Assembly (NCBI GenBank): GCA_964486475.1
Contig: CAZALZ010000013.1
Coordinates: forward strand, 1 to 29,596
Length of the DNA: 29,596 nucleotides
Origin: an uncultured Gammaproteobacteria bacterium
Lineage (GTDB): Bacteria > Patescibacteriota > Patescibacteriia > Patescibacteriales > WJLG01
Direction of reading: 5' to 3'
Below are positions 3,576 through 29,596 of this stretch, piece after piece. Every line of letters begins with the position of its first letter. Position 1 is the stretch's first letter. The translations under genes were made by a program, and so were the position numbers. Under the pieces are notes generated by a model. It saw only the letters and a list, made by a program, of their open reading frames with translations. It did no database searches and was not told where the DNA came from.

Positions 3576-3650
3576 TGGTAGTCCCTATGGGAGTCGAACC
3601 CATCTTTTCAGGATGAAAACCTGATGTCCTAACCGATAGACGAAGGGACC
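3576..3650 (-). tRNA. tRNA-Glu (anticodon UUC), CCA encoded
   Basis: The reverse complement is GGTCCCTTCGTCTATCGGTTAGGACATCAGGTTTTCATCCTGAAAAGATGGGTTCGACTCCCATAGGGACTACCA. Acceptor GGTCCCT/AGGGACT. Anticodon stem TCAGG/CCTGA with loop TTTTCAT gives TTC. T-loop GGTTCGACTCC. Confidence 0.9.
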
Positions 3651-3793: not shown

Positions 3794-4855
3794 ATGATAA
3801 TTTTAGGGATAGAAACAAGTTGCGATGAGACAGCCGCCAGTGTGGTTGATGGTAAAGGAAATAGCGTTAAAGTGCTTTCCAATGTGGTTTCTTCGCAGAT
3901 AGAAATTCATAAAAAATATAATGGCGTGGTGCCGGAAATAGCGGCGCGCGAACATGTTTTAAATATTTTGCCGGTTGTGAATGAGGCTTTGCTTAAAGCC
4001 GGTATAAACCCTCCCCGTCCGCCCAAGGCGGACACCTCTCCAAAGAGGGGAATTAAATTAGACGCTATTGCAATAACGGCCGGACCGGGGTTGATAACTT
4101 CGCTTTTAGTCGGCGTGGAAACCGCCAAGACTTTGGCGTATTCCTGGAATTTGCCTTTAATCGGCGTCAACCATATAGAGGGCCACATCCGCGCGAATTT
4201 TATAAACAACGACGAAAAGATAAAATTGCCGGCGATAATTCTGACTGTTTCCGGCGGACACACGATGCTGGTTTTGATGGATAAAAAAAATAAATTCAAA
4301 ATTATCGGCGAGACGCGCGACGATGCGGCCGGCGAAGCTTTTGATAAAGCGGCTAAGCTTTTGAATCTCGGTTATCCGGGCGGGCCGATAGTTTCTAAAA
4401 CAGCTAAAGAGTTTAATTCTGCTCCGAGAGAAGATATAAAACTGCCGCGGCCGATGTTAAATGACAAAAATTTTGACTTTTCTTTTTCTGGTCTTAAAAC
4501 TGCCCTGCTTTATAAAATAAAAAAAGATGATAGTTGGCAAAAGCGCGTGCCGGAATATTGTTATGAATTTGAGCGCGCGGTTGTAGAAACTTTGGTCGGG
4601 AAAATGATCAAAGCGGCGAAAAAATATCAGGCCAAAACCGTAATGCTTTCCGGCGGCGTGTCGGCCAATTCGGTTTTACGGGAAGAATTTATCAAGGCGG
4701 CTGAGAAAGAAAAATTAAATTATCATATTCCAGAATTGCAATACACGACCGATAATGCCGCCATGATCGCCGCGGCCGGATATTTCCGCGCGAAAGAAAA
4801 AAAGTTCACGCCCTGGAAAAATATCAAAGCTGACTGCAATTTAGAGCTTAAATAA
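3794..4855 (+). CDS. tsaD: tRNA N6-adenosine threonylcarbamoyltransferase TsaD
   Basis: MIILGIETSCDETAASVV, TAGPGL, NHIEGH, DDAAGEAFDKAAKLL, GLDFSFSGLKT-like and GGVSAN motifs. Start set at ATG 3794; the track extension (3695) has no homology-like content. Confidence 0.92.
   Translation: MIILGIETSCDETAASVVDGKGNSVKVLSNVVSSQIEIHKKYNGVVPEIAAREHVLNILPVVNEALLKAGINPPRPPKADTSPKRGIKLDAIAITAGPGLITSLLVGVETAKTLAYSWNLPLIGVNHIEGHIRANFINNDEKIKLPAIILTVSGGHTMLVLMDKKNKFKIIGETRDDAAGEAFDKAAKLLNLGYPGGPIVSKTAKEFNSAPREDIKLPRPMLNDKNFDFSFSGLKTALLYKIKKDDSWQKRVPEYCYEFERAVVETLVGKMIKAAKKYQAKTVMLSGGVSANSVLREEFIKAAEKEKLNYHIPELQYTTDNAAMIAAAGYFRAKEKKFTPWKNIKADCNLELK
4008..4054 (+). repeat. palindromic repeat element copy A, in frame inside tsaD
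   Basis: CCCTCCCC-GTCCGCC-caa-GGCGGAC-a-CCTCT-ccaa-AGAGGGGAATT. It shares the 11-mer AGAGGGGAATT with 19226-19236 and 28975-28985. It encodes NPPRPPKADTSPKRG. Confidence 0.7.
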
Positions 4856-8402: not shown

Positions 8403-8410
8403 AAGTAAAG

Positions 8411-8469
8411 GTAATATGCAGCAAGTAGTATGTAGTATGGGACGCCATACCGCACAAACTATTCCACTG
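8411..8469. repeat. heptad-repeat hairpin element, copy E1 (between the DUF4870-like gene stop and the ppsA start)
   Basis: GTAATATG-CAGCAAG-TAGTATG-TAGTATG-G-gacg-CCATAC-CGCACAAACTATTCCACTG. The core stem is GTATGG/CCATAC. Its left arm is close to copy E4 (ATGCAGCA.G.TAGTATG). Confidence 0.6.
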
Positions 8470-8850: not shown

Positions 8851-8932
8851 GCGGACGTGGTGAAATTGGTATACACGCATGCCTTAGGAGCATGTGGGGC
8901 AACCCATGAGAGTTCAAGTCTCTCCGTCCGCA
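8851..8932 (+). tRNA. tRNA-Leu (anticodon UAG), long variable arm
   Basis: Acceptor GCGGACG/CGTCCGC. D arm GTG..CAC. Anticodon stem CATGC/GCATG with loop CTTAGGA gives TAG. Variable arm TGGGGCAACCCATGA. T arm GAGAG-TTCAAGT-CTCTC. Discriminator A; only CC follows, so the CCA is not fully encoded. Confidence 0.9.
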
Positions 8933-15329: not shown

Positions 15330-15347
15330 TTGAGATATTATGGTGTT

Positions 15348-16055
15348 ATGGATAGAAAACATCAAATACTTGAAGCTATTATTAAAGAACACATCGCATC
15401 CGGCACGCCGGTCGGGTCTTCTGTTTTGGTGGAAAAATGCGGCCTGGATTGCTCACCGGCAACCGTGCGCAATATTATGGTTGAATTGGAAGAAGAAGGG
15501 TTAATCATGCAACCGCACACATCAGCCGGACGCGTGCCGACCGAAGCCGCTTATAACCTATTTATAGAAGAACTGAAAAACGGCCAGCGTAAATTGAAAA
15601 AAGCGCGCGAAAAAGAGCTGAAAGAATTGGATGATAGTTTTTCCGGAGAGGATGAAACAGCCATGCGCGAAACAGCCAAGGCTTTGGCGGCTCTGACCAA
15701 TTCCGCGGTTTTCTGGGCTTTTCATAAAAATAATTTGTATTATACCGGTTTGTCCAATCTTTTTTCCCAGCCGGAATTTATAAATTCCGGTTTGGTCTAT
15801 AATGTTTCAGCGGTGATCGATCGGATGGACGAAATTATTGATTCTATTTTTGAAAAAGTCTCGAGTTCGCCAGGGGGCGGAGCGCAAGTTTTTGTCGGCG
15901 AAGAAAATCCGTTCGGCAATTTCTGCGGTTCTGTTATTGCCAAGTATCGCCTCGGAAATCAAACCGGACTGTTCGGGATTCTCGGACCGATTAGAATGGA
16001 CTATGAGAGGAACTTGGGGCTGGTGGAATATATACTTAATAAGTTGAGGAAATAA
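15348..16055 (+). CDS. hrcA: heat-inducible transcription repressor HrcA, short form (235 aa)
   Basis: N-terminal wHTH (ILEAIIKEHIASGTPVGSSVLVEKCGLDCSPATVRNIMVELEEEGLIMQPHTSAGRVPT) and C-terminal GILGPIRMDYERNLGLVEYI. Start set at ATG 15348 (the track start at 15330 is a TTG abutting CIRCE). Confidence 0.88.
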   Translation: MDRKHQILEAIIKEHIASGTPVGSSVLVEKCGLDCSPATVRNIMVELEEEGLIMQPHTSAGRVPTEAAYNLFIEELKNGQRKLKKAREKELKELDDSFSGEDETAMRETAKALAALTNSAVFWAFHKNNLYYTGLSNLFSQPEFINSGLVYNVSAVIDRMDEIIDSIFEKVSSSPGGGAQVFVGEENPFGNFCGSVIAKYRLGNQTGLFGILGPIRMDYERNLGLVEYILNKLRK

Positions 16056-16628: not shown

Positions 16629-16638
16629 ATAAATATTT

Positions 16639-16707
16639 GTAGCAGGTAGTATGTAGTATGCAGTATGGAATCTAGACCATACTACTTACTACATATTCCA
16701 TACTACC
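16639..16707. repeat. heptad-repeat hairpin element, copy E2 (grpE stop to hsp20 start)
   Basis: TAGCAGG TAGTATG TAGTATG CAGTATG G-aatctaga-C CATACTA CTTACTA CATATTC CATACTA CC. The outer arms GGTAGTATG (16645-53) and CATACTACC (16699-707) are a perfect 9 bp. The inner arms AGTATGG/CCATACT give 7 bp. Confidence 0.75.
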
Positions 16708-16715
16708 AAAATTAT

Positions 16716-17147
16716 ATGCCTAATTTAATTAAATGGAGTCCATTTTTCGACGGGTTCGAAGATATGGACAAAATGTTTTCCGAATTTGTGCCGGTTGTCA
16801 GACGCGGCGACGCTGGCGGGTTTGTTCCGGCTATCGACGTCTATGAAGACAAAGGCAATCTGATCGTGGAAACGCAATTGGCCGGAATCGATCCGGAAAA
16901 AGTTTCCATCGCCATTGAGAATGATGTTTTAACCATCAAGGGCGAGAGCGAAAAGAAAAGCGAAGTCGAGGATAAAGATTATTATAGAAAAGAAATTAGG
17001 CGCGGTTCGTTTTTCCGCACGATCCAGTTGCCGGCCCATGTTGATGGCGATAAAGCTTCGGCCATTTCCGAGTCAGGTATTTTGAAAATTTCTATCCCGA
17101 AGCGGGAAGAATCCCAACCAAAAACAATTAAAATTGAAAAAAAATAA
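16716..17147 (+). CDS. Hsp20/alpha-crystallin family small heat-shock protein
   Basis: Alpha-crystallin domain: PAIDVYEDKGNLIVETQLAGIDPEKVSIAIENDVLTIKGE...RGSFFRTIQLP...GILKISIPK. Start at ATG 16716; the track extension translates the hairpin. Confidence 0.9.
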   Translation: MPNLIKWSPFFDGFEDMDKMFSEFVPVVRRGDAGGFVPAIDVYEDKGNLIVETQLAGIDPEKVSIAIENDVLTIKGESEKKSEVEDKDYYRKEIRRGSFFRTIQLPAHVDGDKASAISESGILKISIPKREESQPKTIKIEKK

Positions 17148-17150
17148 TAT

Positions 17151-17220
17151 TAGCTGTTGGCAATATGTAGTATGTAATATGGAATTTAAACTATACACCA
17201 TACTGCATATCCCATGCTAC
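17151..17220. repeat. heptad-repeat hairpin element, copy E3 (hsp20 stop to dnaK start)
   Basis: TAGCTGTTGG CAATATG TAGTATG TAATATG G-aatttaaa-CTATACA C CATACTG CATATCC CATGCTA C. GTAGTATG (17167-74) pairs with CATACTGC (17199-206), and TAGC (17151-54) pairs with GCTA (17216-19). Confidence 0.7.
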
Positions 17221-17234
17221 AATTATAAAATTCT

Positions 17235-19154
17235 ATGAGTAAAATATTAGGAATCGACCTAGGAACAACTAACAGTGCCATGGCCATAATCGAAGGCGGA
17301 GCGCCTAAGATTCTGGAGAATGCCGAAGGAATGAGAACAACTCCTTCCATTGTCGCAATCTCTAAATCCGGCGAATGGCTGGTTGGCGCTGCGGCTAAAC
17401 GTCAGGCTGTCACCAATCCCGAGAACACCATCTTTGAGATGAAACGTTTGATCGGCCGTCACTTCAATGACGAAGAAGTTCAGCGCGATTTGAAGAATAT
17501 GCCTTACAAGATCGTGCAGGCCGGAGAAGGCGTGAAAATCATTGTTTCCGGAAAAGAATACACTCCGCAGGAAATTTCTGCCAAGGTTTTGGCGAAATTG
17601 AAAGCTGATGCTGAAGCTCGTTTGGGCGAAAAAATTACCGAAGCGATCATTACTGTTCCGGCTTATTTTGATGATTCTCAAAGACAAGCCACTAAGGATG
17701 CTGGTCAGATCGCCGGTTTGAATGTTAAGCGTATCATCAATGAGCCAACCTCAGCCGCTTTGGCTTACGGTTTGGACAAGAAGCACGGCCATCAAATCGT
17801 TGTCTACGATTTGGGCGGCGGAACTTTTGATGTTTCCATTCTTGATGTCGGCGGCGATAGCGTTATGGTTAAAGCAACTAATGGCGACACTCATTTAGGC
17901 GGCGCGGATTTTGACCAGCGCGTTATCAATTGGATTTTAGAAGAATTCCGCAAAGAGGAAGGCGTCGATCTTTCCAAAGATCCGTTGGCTTTGCAGAGAA
18001 TCAAGGAAGCGGCCGAGAAAGCCAAGATCGAATTGTCTTCTTCTATGGAGACAGAAATCAATCAGCCGTTCATAACTGTTGGTGCTGAAGGTCCGAAACA
18101 TTTAGTTAAAAAAATGACTCGCGCGAAATTGGAAGAGTTGGTCGGCGATTTGGTCGAGAAAACCATTGAGCCTTGCAAAAAGGCTTTGACCGATGCCGGT
18201 TTGAAAGTGGAGGATTTGGAAGAAGTTGTTTTGGTTGGCGGTATGACTCGTATGCCAATGGTGCAAAAATTGGTTAAAGACTTCTTTAAGAAAGAACCGA
18301 ATATGTCGGTTAATCCGGACGAAGTGGTTGCAGCTGGCGCCGCTGTTCAGGGCGGTGTCTTGCAGGGTGATGTTAAAGATATTTTGCTTTTGGATGTTAC
18401 TCCGTTGACTTTAGGTATTGAAACTTTGGGCGGCGTGGCCACTCCATTGATTGAACGCAATACCACTATCCCGACTCAAAAATCGCAAATATTTTCTACC
18501 GCAGCTGATTCTCAGACCAGCGTGGAAATCAAAGTCGTTCAAGGCGAACGCCCGATGGCGGCTGACAATAAAGTCCTGGGCAATTTTATGCTCGACGGAA
18601 TTCCGCCGGCTCCTCGCGGCGTTCCACAGGTTGAAGTTAAATTCGACATTGACGCTAACGGAATTCTGAATGTTTCCGCGATGGACAAAGCTTCCGGTAA
18701 AACTCAGAATATTACTATCACTGCTTCTTCCGGACTTTCCAAGGAAGAAGTGGAGAAGATGAAAAAAGAAGCTGAAGCGCACGCCGAGGAAGACAAGAAA
18801 AAGAAAGAAAAAATAGATTTGAAGAATCAGGCCGATGCCGCGGTTTTCCAAACCGAGAAATTGATCAAAGATATGGGCGCGAAAATGTCGCCAGAAGATG
18901 TCAAAACTTTGACCGACCATGTTGAAGATTTGAAAAAGATCAAAGACGGTGATGACATTGAAGCGATCAAAAAGAAATTGGAAGAAATGAACCAGGCTGC
19001 GCAGACCATCGGCGGGAAAATGTACCAATCCGCCCAGGGCGGACAAGCAGCCGGCGCTCAACCGGGAGCTGAACAAGCTGGCGCCGAACAACCAAAGTCC
19101 GAAGATAAAAAAGACGAAGGCCCAGTTGAAGGTGAATACGAGGAGAAAAAGTAA
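17235..19154 (+). CDS. dnaK: molecular chaperone DnaK (Hsp70)
   Basis: [29 protein letters not shown] and the other canonical Hsp70 signatures; 639 aa. Confidence 0.97.
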
Positions 19155-19212: not shown

Positions 19213-19236
19213 AATTCCCCTCTCAAGAGGGGAATT
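19213..19236. repeat. palindromic repeat element copy B (intergenic, perfect 24-bp palindrome)
   Basis: AATTCCCCTCT-ca-AGAGGGGAATT, 5 nt before the ATG at 19242. Confidence 0.8.
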
Positions 19237-19241
19237 AATTT

Positions 19242-19880
19242 ATGCCTCTATCAGCCAGCCACATAAAATTCGCGCTTGATATGAAAGATTATTTCAAGCC
19301 GAAAAATTTGCAGGAATATTTTTCCGGCGCGGTTTATCCCGATAGCCGTTATTTCAGCGGGCTTGATAGAAAAAAGACTCATAATGAAAATTTTTGGCCG
19401 GAAGAATTTTGGCGCGGCGATGATTTTAAAAAGGGCTGGGCTTCGCACTGCATTTCCGATAGAGCATATACGATAGGAATGAAAAAAATTTTTCCTGCTT
19501 GGGTTGATTTGAATAATAATTTAGTAAAGATTGAAAATACCGCAGTAAAAATTCTTGGCGACATTTTTTCATTCGACGATCCGGAAATTAAAAAAATTAT
19601 TGATTTAATCGAAAATATTTCCGGCTTTAACAATGAAAGCCAAGAAGTAATGAAAGACCACTTGCAAACCATGAAATATTGCTATAAAAAGAGCGGTAAA
19701 GGGGAAATTTCCGATTATTCAAAGGCTATGCGGAAAACTTTGGGGGAGGAGATGGCTGAAAAGGTTATTTCTAAAGCGGAATTTTTTAATGAAGATAATG
19801 AGTTGTTAAAGGCGATAAAGAATTTTTTTCAAGAAGGAATTAAGATTGAGATTAAAAATATTTCGGCTAATTTAAATTAG
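19242..19880 (+). CDS. hypothetical protein (212 aa); weak resemblance to the zinc-dependent phospholipase C-like fold
   Basis: The spacing of His/Asp-containing segments (SASHIKFAL, GAVYPDSRY, KKTHNE, GWASHCISDR) resembles Zn-PLC-like families. The assignment is by eye only. Confidence 0.6.
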   Translation: MPLSASHIKFALDMKDYFKPKNLQEYFSGAVYPDSRYFSGLDRKKTHNENFWPEEFWRGDDFKKGWASHCISDRAYTIGMKKIFPAWVDLNNNLVKIENTAVKILGDIFSFDDPEIKKIIDLIENISGFNNESQEVMKDHLQTMKYCYKKSGKGEISDYSKAMRKTLGEEMAEKVISKAEFFNEDNELLKAIKNFFQEGIKIEIKNISANLN

Positions 19881-21372: not shown

Positions 21373-21444
21373 GTAGCATGCAGCAGATAGTATGGTATAT
21401 GGTTTTTGCAACCGCCATATTACATGCCGCATATTCCATACTAC
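21373..21444. repeat. heptad-repeat hairpin element, copy E4 (DUF3467 stop to dnaJ start)
   Basis: GTAGCATG CAGCAGA TAGTATG GTATATG G-tttttgcaaccg-CCATATTA CATGCCG CATATTC CATACTA C. The outer arms GTAGCATG/CATACTAC match 7 of 8. The inner arms ATATGG/CCATAT give 6 bp. It ends 4 nt before the dnaJ ATG. Confidence 0.7.
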
Positions 21445-21448
21445 AAAA

Positions 21449-22525
21449 ATGAGTAAAGATTATTATAAAATTTTAGGAGTGGAAAGAAGTGCCGGCGCTG
21501 ATGAAGTCAAGAAGGCGTTTTTAAGGTTGGCTCATGAATATCATCCCGATAAGACCGGCGGCGACGATGCGAAATTTAAAGAAATTAATGAGGCCTACCA
21601 AGTTTTGGGAAATAAAGAAAAACGCGCGCAATATGATCAATTCGGCTCGGCGGGACCGAACATGGGAGGATTTGGCGCCGGTCGAGGATTTGGCGGTTTT
21701 CAGGGTGGAGGAATGAATATTAATATGGATGATCTGGGTGAAATGTTCGGGGGATTCGGGGATATTTTCGGTTTTGGCTCTTCTCGCTCTAGTCGCGGAA
21801 AATCAAGGCGCGGAGCAGATATCGAAGCTGAACTGACCGTTGACTTTGAAGAAGCGGTTTTCGGCGCGGAAAAGGAAGTTTCTTTGCGTAAAAAAATAAT
21901 TTGCGATCGTTGCCATGGTTCCGGCGCCGAGCCAGGAGCGAAAATGGAAAACTGCTCCACTTGCGGCGGACGCGGGAGGATTCGTTATGTCCAACAAACC
22001 ATTTTGGGTGATATTCAAACCGAAACCACTTGCCGCGCCTGCAACGGCGAAGGAAAGATTCCTTCTCAGAAATGCGCTAAATGCCACGGGAGCGGGGCAA
22101 TTAATGACAGTGTTAAATTTAAAGTTAAAATTCCGGCCGGCGTGGATGATGGCGGACGCATCCGCTTAGCCGGTTATGGCGAAGCCGGAGATAAAGATGC
22201 CGGTGCCGGTGATTTGTATTTAAATATCCGCGTGCGCCATAGTTCCAAATTTGTCCGAGAAGATTATGATATTCTTACTAAAAAAGAAATAACTTTTACT
22301 CAGGCGGCCTTGGGTGATAAAGTGGAAATTGAAACCATCCACGGTAAAGTGGAGTTGAAAATCCCGGAAGGCACTCAGTCGGGAACGGTTTTCAAATTAA
22401 AAAATAAAGGGATTCCGCATATCGGCAGTAAAATTACGGGCGATCATTTGGTGGAGATCATAATTAAAACGCCTAAAAATTTAACTGGTAAGCAGAAAAA
22501 AACTTTAAAAGAATTAAACATTTAA
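21449..22525 (+). CDS. dnaJ: molecular chaperone DnaJ (type I)
   Basis: J domain (DYYKILGV...YHPDK), G/F-rich region, four CxxCxGxG zinc-finger repeats (CDRCHGSG, CSTCGGRG, CRACNGEG, CAKCHGSG). Start at ATG 21449. Confidence 0.95.
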   Translation: MSKDYYKILGVERSAGADEVKKAFLRLAHEYHPDKTGGDDAKFKEINEAYQVLGNKEKRAQYDQFGSAGPNMGGFGAGRGFGGFQGGGMNINMDDLGEMFGGFGDIFGFGSSRSSRGKSRRGADIEAELTVDFEEAVFGAEKEVSLRKKIICDRCHGSGAEPGAKMENCSTCGGRGRIRYVQQTILGDIQTETTCRACNGEGKIPSQKCAKCHGSGAINDSVKFKVKIPAGVDDGGRIRLAGYGEAGDKDAGAGDLYLNIRVRHSSKFVREDYDILTKKEITFTQAALGDKVEIETIHGKVELKIPEGTQSGTVFKLKNKGIPHIGSKITGDHLVEIIIKTPKNLTGKQKKTLKELNI

Positions 22526-28650: not shown

Positions 28651-29596
28651 CTACATTTCTTCAACCACTTCAATCCCCAACAACCCTAATCCATTTTTTA
28701 TAGTTTCTGAAACAGAATTAAGCAGGGTCAGGCGGGCATTTTTGGTTTCTTCGTCAGCTTGCAAAACCGGAACGGCGTGGTAGTAATCGTTTAACATCTG
28801 TGCCAACTCGTAAATATATTTAGCGATTTCTGATGGGTCGTAATTCTTGCCGGCGGTTTCTATAATTTCTGGATATAAAGCAAGTTTTTTAATTAATTCT
28901 ATTTCTTTATTGTTGTTCAGTTTTTCTGCAAAGTTTAACACATCCCGCCTCGGAGTACAGAACCACCCCTCTCGAGAGGGGAATTCTTTATGAAAAATTG
29001 ATTGTATTCTGGCGTAGGCGTATTGGATGTAGGTAGAGGTGAAACCTTCCAGAGCGAGCGCTTTTTCAATATCAAAAGTGATAATGCTTTTAGCGCCGAC
29101 TTTAAGCATTTCGAATTTCATCGCGCCAACGGCGATTTTTTTGGAATTTTCCAGGATTTTTTCTTCGCTCCAATCTTCATGGCGTTTTTTTGTTTCCGCA
29201 ACGCATTTAGACAGAATATCTTGTTTTAATTCTTTGTAAGTGATGACATTGCCGGTGCGGGAGGACATCATACCGGTTGGAAGTTTAACAAAATCGTAGC
29301 CGAGGTGGACAAAATTTTCTTTGAAGCCGGAGAGTTCAAGAATTTTGAACAGTTGTTTGAAATAAAATTCTTGGCGGATATCAACAATAACAATGGAAGT
29401 ATCAGGGGAAAACCGGCGGTGTTTTTCTTTCGCCAAAGCTAAGTCGGCGACAGCATAAGCGGCGGTGCCGTTAGAGCGCGCAACAACCAAGACGTCCAAG
29501 CCGTATTCTTTTAAGTCGGCGATGATAGCGCCTTCGCTTTTTTTCAGAATGCCTTTTTCCAAAAGGGCCGCTGTGTCTATAACAGAGCCTTTTTCA
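28651..29596 (-). CDS. argS: arginine--tRNA ligase, C-terminal about 315 codons (5' end off window)
   Basis: The frame stays open to the window edge (the track start at 29562 is an internal TTG). MSSRTGNV (KMSKS-equivalent region), YIQYAYARIQSI, C-terminal DALR anticodon-binding domain ending ...GIEVVEEM. Confidence 0.9.
   Translation of the reverse strand, partial: EKGSVIDTAALLEKGILKKSEGAIIADLKEYGLDVLVVARSNGTAAYAVADLALAKEKHRRFSPDTSIVIVDIRQEFYFKQLFKILELSGFKENFVHLGYDFVKLPTGMMSSRTGNVITYKELKQDILSKCVAETKKRHEDWSEEKILENSKKIAVGAMKFEMLKVGAKSIITFDIEKALALEGFTSTYIQYAYARIQSIFHKEFPSREGWFCTPRRDVLNFAEKLNNNKEIELIKKLALYPEIIETAGKNYDPSEIAKYIYELAQMLNDYYHAVPVLQADEETKNARLTLLNSVSETIKNGLGLLGIEVVEEM
28941..28985 (+). 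repeat. palindromic repeat element copy C, inside argS (antisense to the gene)
   Basis: CATCCCGCCTCGGAGTACAGAACCA-CCCCTCT-cg-AGAGGGGAATT. It encodes EFPSREGWFCTPRRD in ArgRS on the minus strand. Confidence 0.65.

Follow-up and report, generated by a model that had tools for sequence, protein, structure and literature searches.

The analysed stretch of DNA (hereafter the window) covers 29.6 kb of the source genome, and this is the reach of every within-genome count given below. The gene of the tRNA t6A37 threonylcarbamoyltransferase TsaD (tsaD) occupies positions 3794-4855 of the forward strand and appears in the ORF list as a protein of 353 aa read from the ATG at 3794. Its homologs carry PF00814/PF22521 and are named TsaD, and solved TsaD structures match it with E 7e-86. 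At the far end, argS (arginine-tRNA ligase) lies on the reverse strand at 28651-29596, where the C-terminal 314 codons are present before the gene runs off the window end; it was identified by its translation and by homologs with PF00750/PF05746 named arginyl-tRNA synthetase. Between the two genes, Pfam places dnaK at 17235-19154 and a further ORF at 19242-19880.

The first-pass annotation, made from the sequence alone, had reported an 11-mer that recurs with a partner arm at three places and had judged chance recurrence negligible. Both claims hold. In a window scan, AGAGGGGAATT was found exactly on the forward strand at 4044-4054, 19226-19236 and 28975-28985, with its reverse complement at 19213-19223, and none of 100 dinucleotide shuffles reached four or more matches at one mismatch or fewer. 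The 11-mer is the 3' arm of a hairpin in all three copies; the paired arms are CCTCT-ccaa-AGAGG (4035-4048), CCCCTCT-ca-AGAGGGG (19217-19232) and CCCCTCT-cg-AGAGGGG (28966-28981). Within the window, the 7-mer AGAGGGG on the forward strand is confined to these three copies, and AATTCCCCTCT is the sole non-AT-rich 11-mer that has four occurrences. A search of GC peaks and C/G runs of the window for further degenerate copies gave none beyond the three. Rfam at the gathering threshold, applied to the window and to nine unit-bearing loci, returned two tRNAs only and no family for the unit.

Units of the same design are found far outside this genome. When one genome of each GTDB species was scanned with the pattern CCCCTCTNNAGAGGGGAATT, at least 120 loci were found, with about 17 chance matches estimated for the 18 fixed bases of the pattern. 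Among the matches listed are Bacteroidota (the genera Mucilaginibacter, Pontibacter, Flavobacterium, Lutibacter and Chitinophaga), Ignavibacteria, Brocadia/Planctomycetota, Desulfobacterota, Nitrospinota, Pelosinus, WOR-3, Zixibacteria and Patescibacteria. We observed that the conservation extends upstream of the searched pattern, outside the searched letters. The layout is a leader ACACACCCC, an optional GC hairpin, the invariant hairpin CCCCTCT-NN-AGAGGGG and then AATT, with a total length of 32-50 nt. Among at least 131 units, the short form (n=70) reads aACACACCCC-TAA/TA/TAG-hairpin, and the long forms (n=57) have aACACACCCC and a longer insert before the hairpin, in many cases G, a GC hairpin and CA. 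This inner hairpin varies in sequence and length with the pairing kept: both sides change in 6 of 8 pairs, none of 500 shuffles scores as high in covariation, and slid controls score far lower. UUCG-like loops are common in the family.

REP-like repeats are not usually conserved in sequence across phyla as this unit is. A BLAST search with the unit gave one weak Nostoc match among plasmids and none among phages; thus, no obvious vehicle is seen. As candidate identities of the unit, CRISPR repeats, attC sites of integrons, dif sites, riboswitches and terminators were rejected, since the conservation is restricted to the 32-50 nt unit, the spacing is irregular and the context does not fit. For the matches described below we used a covariance model (CM R1) trained on 21 long-form units, all from phyla other than that of the window.

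The copy in tsaD is a full-length but decayed long-form unit at 4007-4054 on the forward strand. It consists of the leader AACCCTCCCC (4007-4016), the inner hairpin GTCCGCC-caa-GGCGGAC (4017-4033), which had already been noted as a second hairpin, and the outer hairpin CCTCT-ccaa-AGAGG (4035-4048) with the tail GGAATT to 4054. CM R1 matches it at 35.6 bits (E 1.3e-7) over model positions 1-44 of 44. Compared with the consensus there are three substitutions, situated in the 5' arm and the loop of the outer hairpin. Folded as single-stranded DNA, the copy forms two hairpins with -11.9 kcal/mol (z = -3.8). A check of the reading frame confirmed that the block is translated in frame as NPPRPPKADTSPKRGI. 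The palindromic block had been sized at 39 nt, which is too short, as the unit has 48 nt, or 16 codons. The companion claim, that the TsaD segment is 13 residues longer than usual, depends on the reference: the alignment with the solved TsaD of T. maritima (6nak_B) does show 13 gap positions in the insert region, whereas the excess over the commonest uninterrupted Patescibacteria orthologs (AGIKREEAAKKID) is 9 residues. An independent assembly (Logan DRR835036) carries identical tsaD DNA including the insert, next to a different upstream spacer, and an assembly chimera is therefore excluded.

In the AF2 model of TsaD (mean pLDDT 90.8), residues 69-90 are a coil between the helix 48-68 and the strand 91-97, with pLDDT below 50 at residues 78-82. 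The insert thus models as a disordered surface loop, the location that the first-pass annotation had anticipated. In a syntenic genome (GCA_030154545.1, locus L203) with an 81% identical TsaD, the orthologous insert is present at equal length and is more decayed; hence the insertion is older than the split of the two genomes. The decayed copy in L203 retains a different 5-bp hairpin, CCCTT-tt-AAGGG.

The best 120 TsaD homologs were aligned; those with a named source are mostly Patescibacteria/Parcubacteria MAGs. In about half of them the stretch from the long helix to the strand ahead of GPGL is short and uninterrupted (KAGIKREEAAKKIDAIAV); in the rest it is longer by 5 to 40 residues, among which motifs recur, for instance NTPRPRGAATPLERG, TPALSLSRRG and IPLAPFDKGG. 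The insert of the window is absent from orthologs that are 75-77% identical (P0006, P0008, L122, L123), and related or different hairpin units are located at its position in other orthologs. A segment of the same length and similar sequence was looked for in unrelated orthologs and was not found. A neighbour-joining TsaD tree, for which the loop was masked, needs at least 26 changes to account for the presence and absence of inserts. The data therefore support the reading of this copy as a dispersed palindromic repeat tolerated in frame inside an essential gene: a model built outside the phylum matches it from end to end, its occurrence among orthologs is patchy, and the loop that it encodes is predicted to be disordered.

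The copy in argS (28937-28985 on the forward strand, 49 nt) is also a full-length long-form unit, AACACATCCCG..CA-CCCCTCT-cg-AGAGGGG-AATT, and is better preserved than the one in tsaD. CM R1 covers it over the whole model (45.2 bits, E 4.8e-10), and the recurrence of the element beyond tsaD thereby extends to a second full-length unit. It is situated inside argS, whose coding strand is the reverse one, and is coding in frame there, read as EFPSREGWFCTPRRDV. Its loop is CG instead of the usual CA, which removes the TGA that the consensus would place in the argS frame. The nearest ArgRS ortholog (P0121/L202, 82% identity) is without this copy and has RKIINYQSPAINIDFN there; the remaining aligned ArgRS homologs are also without the motif. 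The argS insertion, absent from the 82% identical ortholog, is recent. The 49-nt unit brings a net gain of 21 nt, which means that about 28 nt of the former linker have been lost.

In-frame copies recur among relatives. Of 80 Patescibacteria TsaD loci, about 25 have palindrome-bearing inserts in the loop described above (loop 1). Several sister families are present there: CCCCTCT/AGAGGGG, CCCTCTCC/GGAGAGGG with a CTCACCCC leader, and CCCCCTTT/AAAGGGGG with a TCCCCC leader; two units are sometimes placed in tandem. Two further TsaD loops also carry units, which makes three loops in total, with a patchy distribution among relatives, and other genes on the same contigs carry units as well. Unique hairpins fell inside long open frames in 43 of 57 cases, a coding fraction that is biased because the loci were chosen for TsaD. 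In this TsaD-biased sample the leader was on the coding strand in 22 of 25 orientable cases (binomial P 0.015 against the 2:1 ratio expected from stop-free frames). Outside the TsaD sample, 114 of the 131 units listed were situated outside long open frames. The in-frame examples elsewhere include a DNA methylase gene (L042) and the T9SS C-terminal domain of three different Ignavibacteria proteins.

Clustering of the ORFs within 1 kb of the 131 or more units gave one strongly recurrent family, a protein of about 125 aa. It was the most enriched neighbour, at about 13 of the 120 listed loci, and no other gene family was enriched beside the units at these loci; a '23S rRNA IVS four-helix-bundle' protein as the associated gene was rejected on this ground. 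Pfam assigns the protein to PF04480 (DUF559, Vsr-like PD-(D/E)xK fold) with E from 1e-27 to 3e-30, and PF18741 also matches. A survey of PD-(D/E)xK proteins (PMC3424549) places DUF559 in one group with Vsr and with the homing endonuclease I-Bth0305I. The DUF559 HMM had no match in the window, nor in the roughly 500 kb that the Patescibacteria TsaD loci span.

The DUF559 ORF stands between two units in inverted orientation, most clearly at L053, L060, L057, L096, L099 and L120. The left end of such a cassette is (A)ATT-CCCCTCTTGAGAGGGG-TTAGGGGTGTGT followed by 14-70 nt and the ORF; on the right, the ORF is followed by 3-60 nt and then by ACACACCCCTAA-CCCCTCTCAAGAGGGG-AATT. The stop codon of the ORF is often inside the right-hand unit. 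An independent sample of the best 120 DUF559 homologs, chosen by protein similarity alone, showed a translated unit as the C-terminus in 94 proteins: 59 end in HTPNPSQEG[NS], 20 in ..THP, where the stop is the unit's own TAA, and 3 have TPLTPLKRG, while 12 are partial. A survey of programmed inversions found DUF559 proteins enriched (odds ratio 14) among predicted inversion targets flanked by inverted repeats (PMC9881135). This is the only published hint that we found.

Occupied and empty sites could be compared at a single locus, in Arenibacter; an MgsA-type ATPase gene lies on one side of it and a rhomboid gene on the other, and the DUF559 protein encoded there is P0336. Repeats of ~165 bp that share the same flanks make up an array at this locus, and one, two or three cassettes are present depending on the strain or assembly. 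Empty repeats read aataagtt-CCCCTCTTGAGAGGGG-agctgaat, and filled repeats read aataagtt-CCCCTCTTGAGAGGGG-ctaggggtgtgt...ORF...acacacccccga-CCCCTCTCAAGAGGGG-agctgaat. From this comparison, the cassette is in or beside a leaderless palindrome, with the 16-bp hairpin on both sides. The 16-bp hairpin is the only duplicated sequence of the filled site; there is no other target-site duplication.

The remaining copy of the window has a different status, being a palindrome without a leader. It is a perfect 24-bp palindrome, AATTCCCCTCT-ca-AGAGGGGAATT, at 19213-19236, without a strand of its own and intergenic, with dnaK upstream and the ORF at 19242-19880 on the other side. CM R1 matches its hairpin part only (19217-19232), on both strands, and the fold has -10.1 kcal/mol (z -4.1). 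Elsewhere, cassettes are bordered by (A)ATT-hairpin on one side and hairpin-AATT on the other, and at the Arenibacter locus the empty sites consist of a hairpin that has no leader. Given these outer flanks, ATT and AATT, the copy at 19213-19236 with its AATT-hairpin-AATT looks like an unoccupied palindromic site.

Taken together, we consider the tsaD block a likely fossil, left by a small mobile hairpin unit that was copied into the gene in frame. In its autonomous form, this unit would be the terminal inverted repeat of a DUF559 cassette. More tentatively, and at somewhat less than even odds in our judgement, DUF559 genes would be the autonomous form of an unrecognised class of mobile elements that targets a short palindrome and regenerates it, crosses phyla and sheds single hairpin ends into intergenic DNA and into surface loops of essential proteins of the gene-dense Patescibacteria. 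We infer the following course of events. The DUF559 nuclease would cut at or beside the palindrome, and repair of the break would copy the cassette ends in, as in homing. Abortive, one-ended or off-target events would leave a single end, that is, a leader plus a hairpin. In essential genes the survivors would be those that met a permissive, purine-rich loop coding for Lys/Arg/Glu, had a stop-free frame and kept the frame by their length.

Both coding copies resemble replacements and not clean insertions: in argS, 49 nt stand for about 28 nt, and in tsaD 9 residues were gained for 16 codons. This look gives a slight preference to break repair over cut-and-paste transposition. The window reads AAAGAGGGGAA in place of the AAAGAGAAGAA of uninterrupted tsaD, and AATTCCCCTCTCGAG in place of the AATTATCAATCTCCAG of the argS ortholog. 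From these two post-hoc comparisons we hypothesize that purine-rich half-sites made of Lys/Arg/Glu codons may have been accidental targets.

Single leader-plus-hairpin units are not accounted for by simple cassette insertion, and neither the window nor the Patescibacteria TsaD loci (about 500 kb) gave a DUF559 gene as a partner; both points speak against the main reading. The main rival explanation is that DUF559 merely homes into palindromes spread by something else: the units would be REP/REPIN-like and moved by a RAYT-type or other enzyme or by slippage, and DUF559 would parasitise the palindrome as a homing site. We regard this as unlikely. Among the 131 or more units, single units and doublets, including gene-less pairs, far outnumber cassettes. 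Left+right pairs without a gene are present in a Patescibacteria MAG (L003, L050) and outward-facing pairs at L118 and L022, with one more doublet at L216. Tandem arrays of units (L063, L046) suggest slippage, and leaderless palindromes do exist empty. IMG/VR contigs have convergent doublets and dense clusters of up to 14 units in 10 kb, and no DUF559 gene was found on the contigs with such clusters. On the other hand, no gene other than DUF559 stands out beside the units at the listed loci, and nearly four in five of its best homologs carry the unit (94 of 120). Furthermore, the leader is the cassette side of a filled site and yet it is present in single units, which ties the single units to cassette ends.

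A second rival would have the tsaD hairpins kept for a function, either as mRNA structure (pausing, stability or regulation) or as a Pro/Arg-rich interaction loop. Hairpin-forming inserts do occur in the same TsaD loop across many lineages, and the family of the unit shows covariation in its inner helix and frequent UUCG-like loops; the small, different hairpin retained in L203 at the orthologous place may be a sign that the structure is under selection and not decaying neutrally. However, close TsaD orthologs do well without the insert, and the inserts of this loop stem from several unrelated repeat families, including heptamer repeats. The copy of the window has also lost three outer-stem positions, its loop is predicted to be disordered, and in unrelated phyla the unit is mostly intergenic. 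We find a retained function improbable; the tsaD copy is probably without function now. That the block is an ordinary, lineage-specific expansion of the loop which resembles the unit by chance, or an artefact of assembly, is hardly credible: loop length does vary among TsaD proteins, but an externally built model matches the block end to end (E 1e-7), the shuffles did not reproduce the recurrence of the 11-mer (0 of 100), and an independent assembly has the identical DNA, which together rule this reading out.

If the fossil-copy reading and the proposed role of DUF559 are correct, DUF559, a large family annotated in thousands of genomes without an assigned role, gains a concrete and testable one. 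The puzzle posed by the Rickettsia palindromic elements (RPEs), namely how palindromes enter essential genes in frame, would gain a candidate enzyme and abundant pairs of insertions and empty sites. Part of the odd Pro/Arg/Gly-rich inserts and of the length variation in Patescibacteria core proteins would be explained, and these inserts bear on alignments, phylogenies, structure prediction and gene calling. Annotated proteins also acquire false C- and N-terminal extensions from the units, for example ..HTPNPSQEGN. The first-pass annotation was not aware of a description for such genomes; we likewise found no published description of the unit, including for Patescibacteria, in the openly searchable literature, which covers few subscription journals, so that an earlier description is possible.

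Among known systems, homing endonucleases of the Vsr/EDxHD type, such as I-Bth0305I (PDB 3r3p; PMC3424549), share with the cassettes a small gene of a Vsr-fold nuclease (here PF04480 DUF559 and PF18741) and a site that may be occupied or empty, as observed at one Arenibacter locus. Their difference, as far as sequence comparison tells, is that the candidate target here would be a self-regenerated palindrome and not a conserved host gene, and that the cassettes have inverted terminal repeats and single-end derivatives. Bacterial MITEs are also known inside genes, as in the QMITEs of Coxiella (PMC5896051) and the enterobacterial RU elements (PMC2759123). They resemble the units as small, non-autonomous, hairpin-capable repeats with in-frame read-through. 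However, MITEs measure 100-300 bp and have IS-derived terminal inverted repeats and target-site duplications, whereas most copies here are single ends of 32-50 nt. Gene-less left+right pairs also exist (L003/L050), and the 16-bp hairpin is the sole duplication at the filled Arenibacter site.

The likeness to REP/REPIN-RAYT systems consists in short GC-rich hairpins, dispersed as single units and inverted doublets (observed among the 131 or more units), in a small gene bracketed by them and in a high copy number in some genomes. In contrast, the bracketed gene codes for a Vsr-like PD-(D/E)xK nuclease (DUF559, PF04480, E 1e-27) and not for a RAYT, an IS200/IS605-type tyrosine (HUH) transposase, and the 5' part of the unit is ACACACCCC instead of the GTAG tetranucleotide. 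Besides, REPs are extragenic and species-specific, whereas the unit is not extragenic here and is common to many phyla.

RPEs were reportedly described by Ogata et al. in 2000. They are about 100-150 bp long, restricted to Rickettsia and divided into families RPE-1 to RPE-8, and we know of no gene associated with them. The likeness lies in palindromic repeats that enter protein-coding genes, including essential ones, in frame, encode surface peptides and are patchy among orthologs. Both tsaD (4007-4054) and argS (28937-28985) are read through their copies, and insert-free orthologs exist. RPEs are mentioned in PMC1779305. The unit, on the other hand, has 32-50 nt and makes up the ends of a DUF559 cassette; besides the Patescibacteria-like host, it is present in Bacteroidota, Ignavibacteria and other groups. 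Given the size and host range of RPEs, it is not a member of that family. The first-pass annotation had called the tsaD repeat RPE-like; this is apt for its behaviour, and as to membership the repeat belongs to a cross-phylum family tied to DUF559. A behaviour best known from Rickettsia is thus seen in a Patescibacteria-like genome. If DUF559 genes are indeed the autonomous form of the element, this would be a second, independent and far more widespread RPE-like phenomenon, one with an identifiable enzyme.

Within a single population, two groups of TsaD alleles (loci L150, L157, L166 and L175 vs. L152, L154, L155, L164 and L168) were compared at loop 3, one of the segments that carry inserts in Patescibacteria. 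While the genes themselves were 93–99% identical, the loop 3 sequences, from GGP to LPRPM, were entirely unlike between the two groups: one group carried a hairpin unit, whereas the other had (CTCGCAG)x4 and unrelated sequence. Such wholly different segments within nearly identical genes indicate that the inserts of this loop are swapped at the allele level. In loop 1 of other TsaD loci (L126/L128 and L153) we observed small repeat families other than the unit, namely AACGCAA-tatc-TTGCGTT, present twice and read as NAISCVPES..KYCVPT, together with a long inverted repeat, GTCATTTCGAC...GTCGAAATGAC.

The unit was also found in frame in the T9SS C-terminal sorting domain of Ignavibacteria proteins (L086, L104 and L117, as well as L041), where it is read as QIPLSRGVSEGRGV. 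Its position within this domain was identical in three proteins, while their N-terminal parts differed. Tandem arrays with one unit per repeat were seen with periods of 100 bp (L063, 7493–7712), 68 bp (L046, 559–644) and 230 bp (L229, 7567–8272).

The spacer upstream of tsaD differed between the window and the independent Logan contig L001, the two being otherwise identical. A tRNA gene lies between pgi and tsaD (3579–3650, minus strand); another is located at 8851–8932 (plus strand). The argS gene of L202, the contig of the nearest ArgRS ortholog, adjoins a defence-type island (L202, 1–6400) with genes for SduA (Shedu), a type I R-M HsdM/HsdS fragment, Schlafen/AlbA_2 and RadC; gene calls were fragmented for several genes of this region, including argS.

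In the dnaK C-terminal tail, TCCGCCCAGGGCGGAC (19026–19045) showed 15/16 identity to the tsaD unit's inner hairpin, TCCGCCCAAGGCGGAC (4018–4033), a match that could be due to chance or could be a leftover of another unit. Near the heat-shock genes, GTAGTAT-like heptamers make up an inverted repeat roughly 80 nt long (..GTAGTATGTAGTATGCAGTATGG-8 nt-CCATACTACTTACTAC..), located in the grpE/hsp20 gap (16632–16713), in the hsp20/dnaK gap (17144–17226) and directly upstream of dnaJ (21376–21450), with one additional site at 8410–8440; hrcA (15330–16055) adjoins this region. The repeat may be a heat-shock operator, or else a different repeat family; if it is an operator, it differs from CIRCE.
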